Source: Felis catus
Lineage: Eukaryota
NCBI RefSeq assembly: GCF_018350175.1
Contig: NC_058386.1
Coordinates: 126,480,001-126,544,000 of the forward strand
Length of the DNA stretch: 64,000 bases
Reading direction: 5' to 3'
Shown here: positions 34,112-56,500 of the stretch, in pieces
How the letters are laid out: every line of letters begins with the position of its first letter
Numbering within the stretch: position 1 is the first letter of the stretch
Notes under the pieces: generated by a model
Database searches by the model: none
The model's input: the letters and a program-made list of their open reading frames with translations, nothing else
Told to the model about the DNA's origin: nothing
Made by a program: the position numbers and the translations under genes

Positions 34112-35027
34112 GGCCGCCGCACCGGCCTCCTCAGAGCCCACCGCTACGCTGCGCCCACTGTCGGCCGACCGCTGAGACCCCTGGCAGGCCTCGCGAAGCC
34201 CGGCCCCTCGGCGCGCAAGGCTGTCGGGGATGGCCAGGGCGCCTGCGCAGACAGACCCCGCGGAGCTGGTTCCCACCGAGCCGGCAGAGCCTGGATCCGG
34301 TCGACGCTGACCCCGAGGAGATGGAGGCTGGTTCCGGACGCTGCGCCCCCCGACGCGTGACGTCACTGTCGGGCTCCTACGTCCCCGAGAGCATTCTGGT
34401 GAGGCCACTGGCACGTGACTGTTTCCGGCCCGGCCCGCCCCTCCCCCCAAGCCTGTGTCTGCGCAGGCGCCAGCCGGGCGCACTTGCCAGCAGCCAGCTG
34501 ACCGCCGCCCGCCCGGTCCCGGGCATCGAGGCGTGGGCCGCGCTCAGGCGCTTCTGGGCAGCACCGTGCCTGTCCCTGTCTGTGGGCTCCCCGTACGGCT
34601 CGGGTCTGCGTGTCCCGGGGGCCCTGCGACCCGGGGGCCGGGGGGGGGGGGGCCTACGCGGGATGCCGAGCAGGGGCCACTCCCAGGCCCTGCCTGTCCT
34701 CAGGGAGCACACCCCGCACGGCCCCTAGGGGAGCTGGAAGGGATGGGCCTGGCTCCCTCACCATTTGTCGGTCCCGGGCGCCGTCAGTCCCCTAGTGCCT
34801 GCCAGCCTGGGGGAGGGTACACCGCCGAGGGCGCGACCGGCCTCCGGCCGGGGGCTCCCGGGCTCCTGCCTCCCACTGCAATGGCTGTGGGCTTGGGCCG
34901 GGGGCCCAGGGGGGCCCACCTGGACTTGAGGGCAGCGGCTCGGGGGAGCACCGCCCCGGCGACAGCTCCCCGGTCGCTTTGCCCTCTGCTGCGGCAGCCC
35001 TGACGGGCTGTCCCCCCCTCCCCCCAG

Positions 35028-36134
35028 GAACAAAGTCTTTCGGCTCTCGGGGTGGGGGGGCTGGACGTGCCAGGGGCCCTCAACTGGGAGGTGACCCTGT
35101 GTCTGCAGGCCTGCTGGGTGCTGGCCTACTTCTGTGTCTGCAAGGGGGTCAAGTCAACAGGAAAGGTACAGCTGGAGGCCGGCGGGTCGGGGTGGGTGAT
35201 GATGGCAGGGGTGGGGGCAGCATGGCCGGTGGGGAGAAGGGGTGTCTCCGCTAGGGGGGGGCAGGTGGACCCTGCCATGCGAGGTGACCGGGCCAGGGCC
35301 TGAGGCGGGGGCAGGTCCTTGAACCCAGCCCGGTGGATTTCCCACGCGTGCCTGGGTAGTGCTCCGCAACCTCCACACTCCAGCCCAGCCGACTTCCGTC
35401 CTGAGGGGACAGGCCCAGGCGACCCCCAGCTGAACTTGCCTGTGTCGGGCATCCCTGCCCCAGTTTCCCTCTCTTCCTCACTCACTACTTCCTCACTCTC
35501 TGCTTTGCGGCCAGCCTGGGGGGACCCGGCCCGTGGCCCTCCCTTGCCTACCTGTCCTGCTCTGCTGAGGGTGGGACGGAGGCAGAGGTCTTCGCGGTCA
35601 CCTCGCTGTCGCCTCTGTCTCCGGCCGGCCCAGTCCACTCTGTCCTGCCCAGGACCCTGCCTCTGTGCAGAGAACCACAGGAGGCATGGGACCTGCCTCC
35701 AGGCCGATGTCCTGCTCCCCACCCGGGGAAGGTCCTGCCTCCGCCCTCCCTCTCTACAGCTGACCTGTCCTTGCGGGGGCGGCCGGTGGCCAGCTGAGCA
35801 CCCCGCTTCCTTCGGGAGGAGCCCAGGCTCTGAGGAGTAGAAGGGGGGGCTGCAGGCTGGCCTCCCGCTTGACCTCGGAGCGGACCGTACCACAGTGGGG
35901 GGAGTGTGGCCCGCCTGCCCCCCTGCTGAGGCTGGGGACCCCTAAGTGGGGAGGCGGGGCCGCAGGGCCCCTTCTGAGCAGGTTACCCCCCCCCCGTCCC
36001 TCCCCCGCCCCAGATCGTGTACTTCACGGCTACCTTCCCCTGCGTGGTCCTCGTCGTGCTGTTGGTGCGGGGAGTGCTGCTGCCCGGCGCCCTGGATGGC
36101 ATCATCTGCTCTCTCAAGCCTGACTTGTGGAAGC
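35028..36134 (+). pseudogene. SLC6A8: SLC6A8 fragment, exon 4 to partial exon 5 (mirror of 7505-8610)
   Basis: Exon 4 at 35028-35165, exon 5 from 36014. Similarity is lost after ...ctcaagcctgacttgtggaagc. Confidence 0.93.
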
Positions 36135-52960: not shown

Positions 52961-53524
52961 GCCGGGCGCACGTGCCAGCAGCCAGCTGACCGCCGCCCGC
53001 CGGGTCCCGGGCATCGAGGCGTGGGCCGTGCTCAGGCGCTTCTGGACAGCACCGTGCCTGTCCCTGTCTGTGGGCTCCCCGTACGGCTCGGGTCTGCGTG
53101 TGCCTGGACCCGTCCCCGGGGGCCGGGGGGGAGGGGGCGACGCGGGATGCCGAGCAGGGGCCACTCCCAGGCCCTGCCTGTCCTCAGGGAGCACGCCCCG
53201 CACGGCCCCTAGGGGAGCTGGAAGGGACGGGCCTGGCTCCCTCACCATTTGTAGGTCCCAGGCGCCGTCAGTCCCCTAGTGCCTGCCAGCCTGGGGGAGG
53301 GTACACCGCCGAGGGCGCGACCGGCCTCCGGCCGGGGGCTCCCGGGCTCCCGCCTCCCACACCGCAATGGCTGCGGGCTTGGGCCGGGGGCCCGGGGGCC
53401 CAGGGGCCCAGGGGGACCCAGCTGGACCCGAGGGCAGCGGCACGGGGGAGTACCGCCCCGGCGACAGCTCCCCGGTCGCTTTGCCCTCTGCTGTGGCAGC
53501 CCTGACGGGCTGTCCCTCCCCCAG

Positions 53525-56500
53525 GAACAAAGTCTTGCGGCTCTCGCGGGGGGGGGGGGGCTGGACGTGCCAGGGGCCCTCAACTGGGAGGTGACCCTGT
53601 GTCTGCCGGCCTGCTGGGTGCTGGCCTACTTCTGTGTCTGCAAGGGGGTCAAGTCAACAGGAAAGGTACAGCTGGAGGCCGGCGGGTCGGGGTGGGTGAT
53701 GATGGCAGGGGTGGGGACAGCATGGCCGGTGGGGAGAAGGGGTGTCTCCGCGGAGGGGGGGGGGCAGGGGCACCACGCCTTGCGAGGTGACCGGGCCAGG
53801 GCCTGAGGCGGGGGCAGGTCCTTGAACCCAGCCCGGTGGATTTCCCACGCGTGCCTGGGTAGTCCTCCGCAACTTCCACACTCCAGCCCAGCTGCCTTCC
53901 GTCCTGAGGGGACAGGCCCAGGCGACCGCCAGCTGAACTTGCCTGTGTCGGGCAACCCCGCCCCAGTTTCCCTCTCTTCCTCACTCACTACTTCCTCACT
54001 CTCTGCTTTGCGGCCAGCCTGGGGGGACCCGGCCCGTGGCCCTCCCTTGCCTACCTGTCCTGCTCTGCTGAGGGTGGGACGGAGGCAGAGGTCTTCGCGG
54101 TCACCTCGCTGTCGCCTCTGTCTCCGGCCGGCCCAGTCCACTCCGTCCTGCCCAGGACCCTGCCTCTGTGCAGAGAACCACAGGAGGCATGGGACCTGCC
54201 TCCAAGTCATGTCCTGCTCCCCAGCCGGGGAAGGTCCTGCCTCCGCCCTCCCTCTCTACAGCTGACCTATACTTGCTGGGGCGGCCGATGGCCAGCTGAG
54301 CACCCCACTTCCTTCAGGAGGAGCCCAGGCTCTGAGGAGTAGAAGGGGGGGCTGCAGGCTGGCCTCCCGCTTGACCTCGGAGTGGACCGTACCACAGTGG
54401 GGGGAGTGTGGCCCGCCTGTCCCCCTGCTGAGGCTGGGGGCCCCTAAGTGGCGAGGCGGGGCCGCAGGGCCCCTTCTGAGCAGGTCCCCCCTCCGTCCCC
54501 CCCCCGCCCCAGATCGTGTACTTTACGGCTACCTTCCCCTGCATGGTCCTTATCGTGCTGTTGGTGCGGGGGGTGTTGCTATCCGGCGCCCTGGATGGCA
54601 TCATCTACTATGTCAAGCTTGACTGGTCGAAGCTGGGGTCCCCTCAGGTGAGGGGGCGGTGGGCTGGACGGGACGAGGGGCGGGCCAGGCCGGCAGGGCC
54701 CCTCACCTCCTCCCCGCCCTGGTCTATCTCCAGGTGTGGATAGATGCCGGGACCCAGATTTTCTTTTCTTTCGCCATCGGCCTGGGCGCCCTCACGGCGC
54801 TGGGCAGCTACAACCGCTTCAACAACAACTGCTACAAGTAGGTGCCGCAAGGCTGCCCCACCGCCCCCGCCACGCATCCTCGGGCAGCAGGCGGCCTGAC
54901 CAGTCCCCGCGGCCCCTCTGCCCCCAGGGACGCCATCATCCTGGCCCTCATCTACAGCGGGACCAGCTTTTTCGCTGGCTTCGTGGTCTTCTCCATCCTG
55001 GGCTTCATGGCCGCAGAGCAGGGCGTGCACATCTCCAAGGTGGCGGAATCAGGTGAGGACCCCGACCTCTCCGCCCGGCCTTCCGTCCTAACAGACCCCA
55101 TCCGCGAACACACGTGCACACAGACGTTCTGGGAAACGAGAGACAGATTCACTTCGCTTGTCCCGTCACTCGGGGCCGAGGGAGGCCTGGCCGAGCAACT
55201 GCGAGGCACAGCTGTTCCCGTTGGCCCCGAGCCGGAGCCTCGCGGGCCGGGCCACGGGGGGCCTCGAGCTCTCGTCCGTCCATCCGTGCATCCCTCCCCG
55301 GGGCCCTGGGCTGAGCCCCTCACATTCGGCCGAGTGTTGCAGAGGGAGAGGAGGGGCTTTCCGGGGTGAACGGTGACCGGTGACCACAAGGGCAGCCGGC
55401 CGGCAAGACCCGGAGCCTGAGCCAGACACCCCGCTCTTGCGGGCTCAGGCCCCCCCGGCAACACCTTGACTCAAGGGGAAAGGCCCCCAGCCACCGCACG
55501 CCCCGCCCCGGCGTCATGCTTCAGTTTGGAAGCTCAGGGAAGGGGAGAAGGGGAGGGCGGCGGGCAGTGACGAGGCCGGACGGAACGGAACGCGGGCGCG
55601 GGACACAGGTGTCGAGACCCTGCCGCTTCCCCCTTCAGGGCCCGGCCTGGCCTTCATCGCCTCCCCCCTGGCCGTCACGCTAATGCCTGTGGCCCCCCTC
55701 TGGGCTGCCCTGTTTTTCTTCATGCTGTTGCTGCTCGGCCTGGACAGCCAGGTTTGCAGGGGGGGCGGGGGGGGACAGGACGGAGGGTGCCGGGAGGGTG
55801 GGGGAGGCCCCGGGGCGAGGGGGGACGGCTGGCAGGTGGCCGCAAGGGCGTGGCCTGAGCGCCCGGCCACAGTTTGTAGGTGTGGAAGGCTTCATCACCG
55901 GCCTGCTCGACCTCCTCCCGGCCTCCTACTACTTCCGTTTCCAAAGGGAGATCTCCGTGGCCCTCTGCTGCGCCCTCTGCTTTGTCATCGACCTCTCCAT
56001 GGTGACTGATGTGAGTGGGGGCGGGGTGGGGGCCGCCCCAGGCCTCCCGCTGCCTGCCACCTTCCCTGACCCGGCTCCGTCCCCAGGGCGGGATGTACGT
56101 CTTCCAGCTGTTTGACTACTACTCGGCCAGCCCAGCAGCACGACCCTGCTGTGGCAGGCCTTCTGGGAGTGCGTGGTGGTCGCCTGGGTGTACGGTAGGT
56201 CCGGGCCCCGGGGCGAGCTGGGGGTGCGGGCCGGAGCAGGGGTGGTGGGGCGTCCGGCTCCAGCCCTCCCGCCTCGCTCGCCCCAGGAGCCGACCGCTTC
56301 ATGGACGACGTCGCCTGCATGATCGGGTACCGCCCTTGCCCCTGGATGAAATGGTGCTGGTCCTTCTTCACCCCGCTGGTCTGCATGGTAAGGGCCGGGG
56401 GAGGCCCGAGCCGGGGGAGGGGTGCCGAGGGCCCGCCGCTGGCTGAGCGCGCGGCGGGGGGTTCTCACCTGCAGGTCATCTTTATCTTCAACGTGGTGTA

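Follow-up and report, generated by a model that had tools for sequence, protein, structure and literature searches.

In the cat X-chromosome window analysed here (the whole stretch of 64,000 nucleotides), two members of the LAGE3/CTAG family, genes B' and D, share a closely similar upstream cassette. This arrangement probably derives from an old, intron-containing SLC6A8 fragment that lies head-to-head with a LAGE3-family promoter unit, was copied between paralogues and was renewed from the parent gene by ectopic recombination. The elements concerned are as follows.

32972..34111, minus strand: gene B', LAGE3/CTAG family, three exons, open frame, introns spliced in an RNA contig
34112..34401, minus strand: B's own proximal promoter and 5' region, colinear with paralogue C and LAGE3
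34402..34441, no strand assigned: LAGE3-family promoter unit in the shared block, defined by alignments and containing the B/D breakpoint
34442..34543, plus strand: decayed SLC6A8 exon 3 remnant (shuffle p 0.005 against parent exon 3)
34544..36134, plus strand: B copy of SLC6A8 from intron 3 to the middle of exon 5, by sequence comparison with the parent
7506..9234, minus strand: B cassette in mirror orientation, on the opposite arm of an inverted repeat, from self-BLAST
51612..52726, minus strand: gene D, cancer/testis antigen 1-like, intact, ATG present
52727..52889, minus strand: D's own proximal promoter and 5' region, CRE palindrome at 52820-52827
52890..53030, no strand assigned: D promoter unit and exon-3 remnant, with two E-boxes, a GC box and an NRF1-like site
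53031..54633, plus strand: D copy of SLC6A8 from intron 3 to exon 5, differing from the parent at 141 of 1559 sites
54634..56986, plus strand: young layer of SLC6A8 sequence running from the end of exon 5 into intron 12, differing from the parent at 42 of 2339 sites
56986..57089, plus strand: old SLC6A8 intron 4 remnant, 104 bases, 84-87% alike to the parent, B and D

Self-BLAST of the window aligned 34402-36134 with 52890-54633 at 93.6% identity over 1757 columns (95.5% if substitutions alone are counted), with a mirror copy at 7506-9234. In the Pcc1 region, B and D share 29 of 76 residues (38%). These results agree with the initial annotation, which described near-alike blocks upstream of only distantly alike genes; the block is real, but it starts at 34402 and 52890 and not at 34399 and 52888. 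Its start lies 164 bases from the ATG of D (52726) and 291 bases from the ancestral start position of B (34111), as expected from the proposed distance of about 160-290 bp. Sliding identity, suggested as the check for a breakpoint, dropped abruptly at the gene-side edge. Four successive 50-base steps inside the edge held 50, 48, 48 and 49 matches, whereas those outside held 28, 26, 34 and 26, which is the level of shuffled sequence (means 28-32). The proposed swap or conversion between paralogues is thus retained as a non-allelic exchange with a sharp breakpoint, but not as a recent promoter swap.

The cassette is mostly SLC6A8-derived, as had been claimed, but its first ~40 bases are of LAGE3-family origin. 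In B this promoter unit contains an E-box (34412-34417), CCGGAA and a GC box (34434-34441), and it aligned to C (shuffle p 0.005) and LAGE3 (0.015); against SLC6A8 the shuffle p was 0.055. On these alignments, the E-box/GC unit is native to the LAGE3 family and did not come from SLC6A8. The NRF1-like site at 34460-34470 falls within the exon-3 remnant; that it arose instead by inversion of the proximal site of B and C is possible but not preferred (47.5 vs 51.5 for exon 3), because the dog peptide has MRRR there. The E-box, GC box and NRF1-like site noted earlier are all present in the shared block; among 464 GC-rich 120-base windows from the region, seven contained all three, and each of the seven was a cassette copy. 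The CpG-rich island holds a GC box, an NRF1-like site and CCGGAA, which are features of a bidirectional CpG-island promoter. Outside the edge, the 5' region of B scored 221 against C and 134 against LAGE3 (shuffle p 0.005 each) vs a shuffle p of 0.70 against D, and it carries a CRE palindrome (34358-34365) and an NRF1-like site of its own. The alignment to C continues beyond the breakpoint for both B and D (scores 63 and 52.5), so the direction of transfer is not readable, and a B-to-D direction based on promoter continuity was ruled out.

The coding parts of the family were also compared. Pfam PF09341 (Pcc1) was above the cut-off in exon 2 of D and of A; exon by exon, B gave no PF09341 match, and the matching database models of B carry PF09341. 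B was previously regarded as the LAGE3 duplicate, which did not hold: the two share 33 of 76 residues (43%), and the close duplicate lies outside the window at C47:126.666-126.670 Mb. The paralogue tree of the family lacks resolution (support 61/67). Start codons had been assumed for both genes; D has an ATG, but in B' the ancestral start position reads ACG, and exon 1 contains no ATG in frame. ACG is present in 7 of 7 assembled cat B copies, and ATG occupies the same position in five other felids. Because the true start is ACG, database cat B models take their start codons from the cassette. A Leopardus B model is a translation of the cassette's antisense strand. A literature search for a report of an ACG start in fly Pcc1 did not find one.

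The parent SLC6A8 gene is located 0.8 Mb from the cassettes. The fragment retains introns, is colinear with the parent and lacks the 5' exons, which characterizes it as an unprocessed (segmental) pseudogene fragment. Exons 1-2 are missing, the exon-3 donor is altered, and B is cut in exon 5; D's copy extends 2.35 kb further, to 56986, and this young layer has a frameshifting 5-base insertion and a 3-base deletion in exons. Both copies carry VCKG and TFPC. Three-way comparison with the parent (n = 1546 columns), unpolarized between parent and copy, gave 94 changes common to B and D, 38 D-only, 25 B-only and 6 all different, supporting the suggestion that both descend from one already-mutated copy. 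The shared-derived sites were clustered in patches (permutation p 0.003). Intron divergence from the parent was about 12% in the proximal part (93/778 and 91/767 sites), 4-6% in the middle part (30/529 and 22/530) and 2% in the distal part (31/1468). D-parent divergence dropped from 9.0% to 1.8% (Fisher p 2e-25) with the best change point at 54620 (support 54583-54907), and the B-matching block ends at 54633. Tracts of unlike divergence thus form a mosaic, as ectopic gene conversion with the parent predicts, and the stepwise pattern suggests that ectopic conversion or extension took place repeatedly. Some of the steps could, however, reflect constraint that varies along the parent's introns.

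The cassettes are embedded in an amplicon. An 11.5-kb inverted repeat of 98% identity (4070-15523 vs 28116-39559) lies within the window, and the wider region has longer inverted arms, one pair of 21 kb (99.97% identity) and one of 24 kb (99.25%). A hit on C16 showed a short match. Three segments lie beyond the B cassette.

36142..36899, plus strand: left-hand portion of a LAGE3 duplicate of 4 kb, differing at 34 of 757 sites, corresponding to DNA 0.8-1.5 kb upstream of LAGE3 and truncating B's cassette
36928..37272, minus strand: segment matching 39791-40135 (upstream of paralogue A') in inverted orientation at 97.4%
37516..37864, minus strand: segment joined directly to 34399 in the spliced B contig, its far end placed by the length of the RNA contig

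At C47:126.664-126.671 Mb, the B cassette lies opposite a D stub of 140 bases, in facing orientation, with a 4-kb LAGE3 copy between them that is patchy (0-18% per 300-column block). The inverted arrangement of B cassette, LAGE3 duplicate and D cassette is a likely route of exchange. The third D copy (C47:126.670 Mb) retains only the promoter unit and exon-3 remnant, without 1.6 kb of the cassette; its motif cluster is kept, its exon-1 peptide is identical, and two of its private letters appear in an RNA contig. This copy was ruled out as the ancestral SLC6A8-free state, as it still has the exon-3 remnant and is itself cut by the LAGE3 duplicate.

At the RNA level, one spliced B contig (depth 55) had both B introns removed and the entire cassette skipped. 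This speaks against a need of B for the cassette, its proximal element included, in the animal sampled. No cut position made its 34399/37516 junction a GT-AG splice. In run X7, RNA covered cassette DNA of both types at depth 5-7 and B introns at zero, in contigs that carry no strand or start information. Among the runs, which have no tissue labels and were compared without gene D and the distal cassette, one contained spliced B, two raw runs held 2 and 9 reads, and one looks like DNA.

Related arrangements were observed in other carnivores. Two tiger models and one cheetah model have VCKG, TFPC and the D-type LPAC and extend to intron 12, ruling out the young D layer as cat-specific. Between species, a single site hints at recent conversion, with Ala in cat parent and cat D and Thr in tiger and cheetah D; it is a CpG and may be homoplasy. 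When the 27 residues preceding SLC6A8 exon 5 in a dog model were back-translated and scanned over 470 GC-rich window-strands (median 14.0, sd 2.0), the two D remnants ranked top (23.6 bits), followed by one unrelated window (20.7) and all five B copies (20.4). The match lies at the expected place and strand of the cat cassette, with shuffle p values of 0.003 for the D remnant, 0.007 for the B remnant and 0.29 for parent exon 3. Wolf, raccoon dog and arctic fox models contain related peptides before SLC6A8 exon 5, the raccoon-dog peptide by itself being not significant (p 0.083). These comparisons concern automated protein models, not dog DNA, and the scores are modest. The 5' parts of the canid models match B and C; with dog residues 1-69, however, the B 5' ends scored below three GC-rich windows that are unrelated. 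Frameshift-aware protein alignment of the canid peptides was not discriminating at residues 69-95, neither the N-terminus of the mole model nor the dog peptide that follows exon 5 had a convincing match, and an atlas search returned SNF-family clusters only. Judged from these protein models, the arrangement likely predates the cat-dog split.

Other explanations have to be considered. In a reading developed from the initial annotation, an SLC6A8-derived regulatory cassette passed from D to B, imposing D-like germline control on B and driving divergent transcripts into the SLC6A8 exons. The confinement of the motif cluster to cassette copies, the longer copy of D, the X7 coverage of both cassette types and canid models that span the promoter into exon 5 are compatible with this, but the reading is very unlikely. 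The E-box/GC unit aligns to the C and LAGE3 promoters, which does not support its arrival with SLC6A8 sequence from D, B and D both retain a proximal promoter of their own with a CRE, the edge gives no direction, the depth-55 B contig omits the cassette, and one D copy is without most of it.

A neutral passenger without function, inserted separately in felids and canids (and perhaps the mole), with the canid match due to chance or parallel decay, is also unlikely. In its favour, exon 5 of the canid models hardly differs from the parent and still reads TFPY, the fragments stop at different points in cat B, dog and mole, the mole N-terminus is unmatched to the remnant, and a separate human SLC6A8 duplication has been described (PMC2396218). 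However, the dog peptide fits the decayed cat remnant and not the parent exon, in the right place and strand, and the truncated D copy retained just the motif cluster. Least credible to us is a single felid-lineage duplication from SLC6A8 exon 3 to intron 12, in which fast, GC-biased change close to an active promoter and parental constraint produced the steps with no later parent traffic. Shared changes from parent to copies do favour weak-to-strong over strong-to-weak (52 vs 22), the CpG ratio is 0.61-0.67 vs 0.38 near the promoter, and the long copy already exists in tiger and cheetah. Against this, divergence changes abruptly at 54620, a point 1.9 kb away from the promoter, the intron-4 remnant beyond the 2% layer is 14% diverged, and the canid match demands an older origin.

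The block, its sharp edge in the shared promoter unit, the stepwise divergence and the inverted arrangement are observed, and from them we infer the following course for an old fragment renewed from its parent. An old insertion would have placed SLC6A8 sequence, beginning with exon 3, next to the promoter unit. This unit would have seeded exchange between B and D, aided by the inverted arrangement, which last equalized the two cassettes before the Panthera split. The parent, at a distance of 0.8 Mb, would have supplied sequence that replaced or lengthened the distal parts, most recently the 2.35 kb of young sequence in D. The proximal ~130 bases would have escaped renewal and may act as a predicted upstream promoter element; the distal 1.6 kb is probably carried along as a passenger. 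It is possible, though doubtful, that an SLC6A8 coding exon was exapted more than 50 million years ago into a shared NRF1-bearing carnivore LAGE3/CTAG promoter and retained under selection, with the rest kept young by long-range conversion from the parent. As part of the same reading, the cat B family would have moved to an ACG start that spread among copies by conversion, and would still make protein.

Non-allelic gene conversion and MMBIR/FoSTeS-type template switching are known mechanisms. The cat locus resembles their products in its mosaic identity tracts, its junctions with short or no homology and its several templates within 1 Mb, but unlike a single MMBIR/FoSTeS event the cassette is long-lived, with stacked layers of different age. 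Like LAGE3, CTAG1 and CTAG2, the cat genes have a Pcc1 domain and three exons, and the first intron of A, B, C, D and LAGE3 has a GTATCC donor and a CCTTAAC branch site, in line with the U12-type consensus; unlike them, the felid family is expanded to A, B, C, D and a young LAGE3 copy, and cat B starts with ACG. No SLC6A8 piece is known upstream of the human LAGE3/CTAG genes. Human SLC6A10/CT2, an SLC6A8 paralogue at 16p11.2, was reported to be expressed in testis and brain (PMC2396218). The cat fragment is likewise an SLC6A8 duplicate, but it stayed within the X, is 5'-truncated and intron-containing, and is fused to another family's promoters. X-linked palindromes and amplicons with cancer-testis genes have been described (PMC8327919; PMC8327908), and the main text of these papers does not name CTAG. 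The cat region is similar in its near-identical inverted arms, multi-copy CTAG-like genes and rearrangements at inner arms and spacers, but here a short shared block upstream links paralogues that are only 38% alike in the exchange, and a donor outside the cluster, 0.8 Mb away, seems to participate.

If this history is true, a short homologous block is able to couple the upstream regions of long-diverged paralogues, and a fragment can go on trading sequence with a parent gene 0.8 Mb distant through tens of millions of years, so that layers which can be dated are left behind. Copies with a long, short, 140-base or possibly no cassette form a natural series for studying promoter function. In practice, cat B database models carry borrowed start codons, and the 98%-alike SLC6A8 copy can mislead the mapping of reads and the calling of variants in the cat creatine-transporter gene.

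The initial annotation proposed that genes B and D, two LAGE3/CTAG-family paralogues of cat, share one SLC6A8-derived upstream cassette. The features concerned are as follows (window coordinates):

32972-34111, minus strand: gene B (B')
34402-36134: shared block upstream of B
51612-52726, minus strand: gene D
52890-54633: shared block upstream of D

The two blocks are 93.6% identical, and their edge is sharp, with 48-50 of 50 positions matching inside versus 26-34 of 50 outside, the level of shuffled sequence. As claimed, the genes themselves are only distantly alike (29 of 76 residues in common), and the derived changes VCKG and TFPC are present in both cassette copies. 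Among 1546 columns aligned between B, D, and the parent, SLC6A8 proper, B and D together differ from the parent at 94, D alone at 38, B alone at 25, and all three from one another at 6. The suggested exchange between paralogues is supported by the sharp edge in a block common to B and D. Past the edge, both genes still align to paralogue C (scores of 63 for B and 52.5 for D); thus, the edge lies inside a family-wide unit, and the direction of exchange is unreadable.

The first 40 bases of the cassette hold the E-box and GC box and are alignable to the paralogue C promoter (shuffle p 0.005) and the LAGE3 promoter (p 0.015). For the 70 bases after them, which hold the NRF1-like site, the best alignment is to SLC6A8 exon 3 (p 0.005). 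The E-box, GC box, and NRF1-like site are all absent from exon 3 of the parent. The proposed takeover of B by D-like regulation is not supported, since the E-box/GC box unit is family-wide, the direction is unreadable, and B and D each carry one CRE palindrome of their own on the native side of the edge. No part of the cassette is further diverged from the parent than the proximal 130 bases, yet these match canids and are retained in the D stub, so on sequence grounds they are likely the functional part. The 5' region of D also contains a (GAAC)n microsatellite (52764-52790).

The window lies in distal cat X (contig C47), where SLC6A8 proper is at 125.69 Mb and LAGE3 proper at 126.344 Mb. By donor and branch motif, 17 LAGE3-family genes were found in 126.33-126.74 Mb (5 B, 4 A, 3 C, 3 D, LAGE3, and one young LAGE3 copy), laid out as inverted repeats of 98-99.97% identity, together with 5 B-type cassettes, 2 full D-type cassettes, and 1 D stub. 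Where the inverted arms end on their inner side (window 14836-16330 and 28100-28830), there are degenerate, GC-rich tandem repeats that differ in length. Part of the cluster is repeated on the unplaced contig C56 (59.6 kb, 99.8% alike to C47:126.444-126.484 Mb). Several short local duplications mark the D cassette of C56, which may represent an alternative assembly or one of lower quality. Elsewhere, L055:2700-3900 (C47:78.379 Mb) is a processed LAGE3 pseudogene with a poly(A) tail, embedded in LINE-like DNA.

The D copy in the window extends to intron 12 and has a terminal 104-base intron-4 remnant, 84-87% alike to all other copies. The B cassette is interrupted in exon 5; the DNA that follows comes from a segment 0.8-1.5 kb upstream of LAGE3, from which it differs at 34 of 757 sites. 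At 126.664-126.671 Mb, this piece extends into a whole 4-kb LAGE3 copy that ends at the inverted 140-base cassette stub preceding a D gene. The B and D cassettes there face each other with the LAGE3 copy between them, a plausible setting for arm-to-arm exchange.

Divergence from the parent is layered. Between D and the parent, 141 of 1559 sites differ within the shared part and 42 of 2339 differ further on (p 2e-25), with the best change point at 54620 (support 54583-54907). Counting introns only, divergence is 12% in the proximal part, 4-6% in the middle part, and 2.1% in the distal part. Sites derived in common are patchily distributed (permutation p 0.003), and the LAGE3 copy is likewise patchy, at 0-18% by block. 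The steps are read here as repeated conversion or one-sided extension from the parent, in a comparison without outgroup DNA and with changes unpolarised. Weak-to-strong changes exceed strong-to-weak (52 vs 22), which leaves room for rate effects. In exon 5 of cat D (window 54513-54633), 14 of 120 sites differ from the parent, and five residue changes are not in tiger and cheetah D. The frame of the 4-kb LAGE3 duplicate (G000:C47:126666148-126670196) is open; divergence from LAGE3 is 0-0.3% in some flanking blocks and 6-18% in the gene-covering blocks, which suggests fast change within the gene.

VCKG, TFPC, and the D-type LPAC also occur in two tiger models and one cheetah model, all of which continue into intron 12; the B/D split and the long D copy are therefore older than the Panthera split. 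The cheetah model and a CTAG1-like model sit on equal-sized contigs, and a Leopardus B model starts within the antisense strand of the cassette. The canid and mole evidence consists of automated protein models, and adjacency in canid DNA is presumptive. In the short models of dog, wolf, raccoon dog, and arctic fox, a non-SLC6A8 peptide comes directly ahead of SLC6A8 exon 5. When dog residues 69-95 were back-translated, the top scores among 470 GC-rich window-strands were the two D remnants (decayed exon 3), followed by one unrelated window and then all five B remnants (shuffle p 0.003 for D, 0.007 for B, and 0.29 for the parent exon). Dog residues 1-69 match the antisense of the B 5' end (p 0.013), with three unrelated windows scoring higher, and the start of another dog model matches C (p 0.007). 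Taken by itself, the raccoon-dog peptide falls short of significance (p 0.083). In star-nosed mole, the automated model P0069 (Condylura cristata) links SLC6A8 exons 5-6 with a Pcc1 exon. It hints at an SLC6A8 piece close to a LAGE3-family gene beyond the carnivores, although the model lacks a match to the remnant at its N-terminus.

The ancestral start codon of B (window 34109-34111) is ACG in all seven B copies of the cat assembly. Five other felid species (of Neofelis, Herpailurus, and Leopardus, and two of Prionailurus) have Met at this position, in models whose first residues are MRAPDD. The spliced frame is open through the Pcc1 domain, and exon 1 has three out-of-frame ATGs. Cat B is either a near-cognate start user or a transcribed pseudogene family. 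At the ancestral A' start position (window 39344-39346), GTG is present in 6 of 6 matched A copies, with an in-frame ATG further along exon 1.

RNA was sampled in 4 of 24 listed runs over 32600-35030. Sampling about 1-2 in 100 of each raw run produced 2 reads for X24 and 9 for X21, and X6 covered introns as in DNA. X7 yielded a 1479-base contig (depth 55) from which both B introns are spliced out at CT..AC ends and in which the ACG codon is free of alternative letters. The 5' 349 bases of this contig depart at 34399 and continue with letters from 37516 on, skipping the cassette. No cut position at this junction is GT-AG, and the junction is absent from the cat assembly, where every copy found of the segment sits in a tail without a break. 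The simplest reading is therefore that this animal carries a deleted B copy, possibly fed by read-through from A', with an artefact as the alternative. Over the cassette, X7 contigs of depth 5-7 with D-type and B-type letters, two of them private to the D stub, show low transcription, bearing neither strand nor start.

In an old insertion, a LAGE3-family promoter unit would have been joined to the part of SLC6A8 that starts with exon 3. Starting at this unit, ectopic exchange would then have equalised the B and D cassettes, distal parts would have been renewed from the parent, and a later LAGE3 duplication would have interrupted the cassette of B. A literature search thin on subscription papers turned up no paper on SLC6A8 sequence at CTAG/LAGE3 genes; the supplements of PMC8327908 may list the cat amplicon. 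The shared block is real, a variant of known amplicon dynamics, and the cassette possibly includes an old exapted promoter piece.
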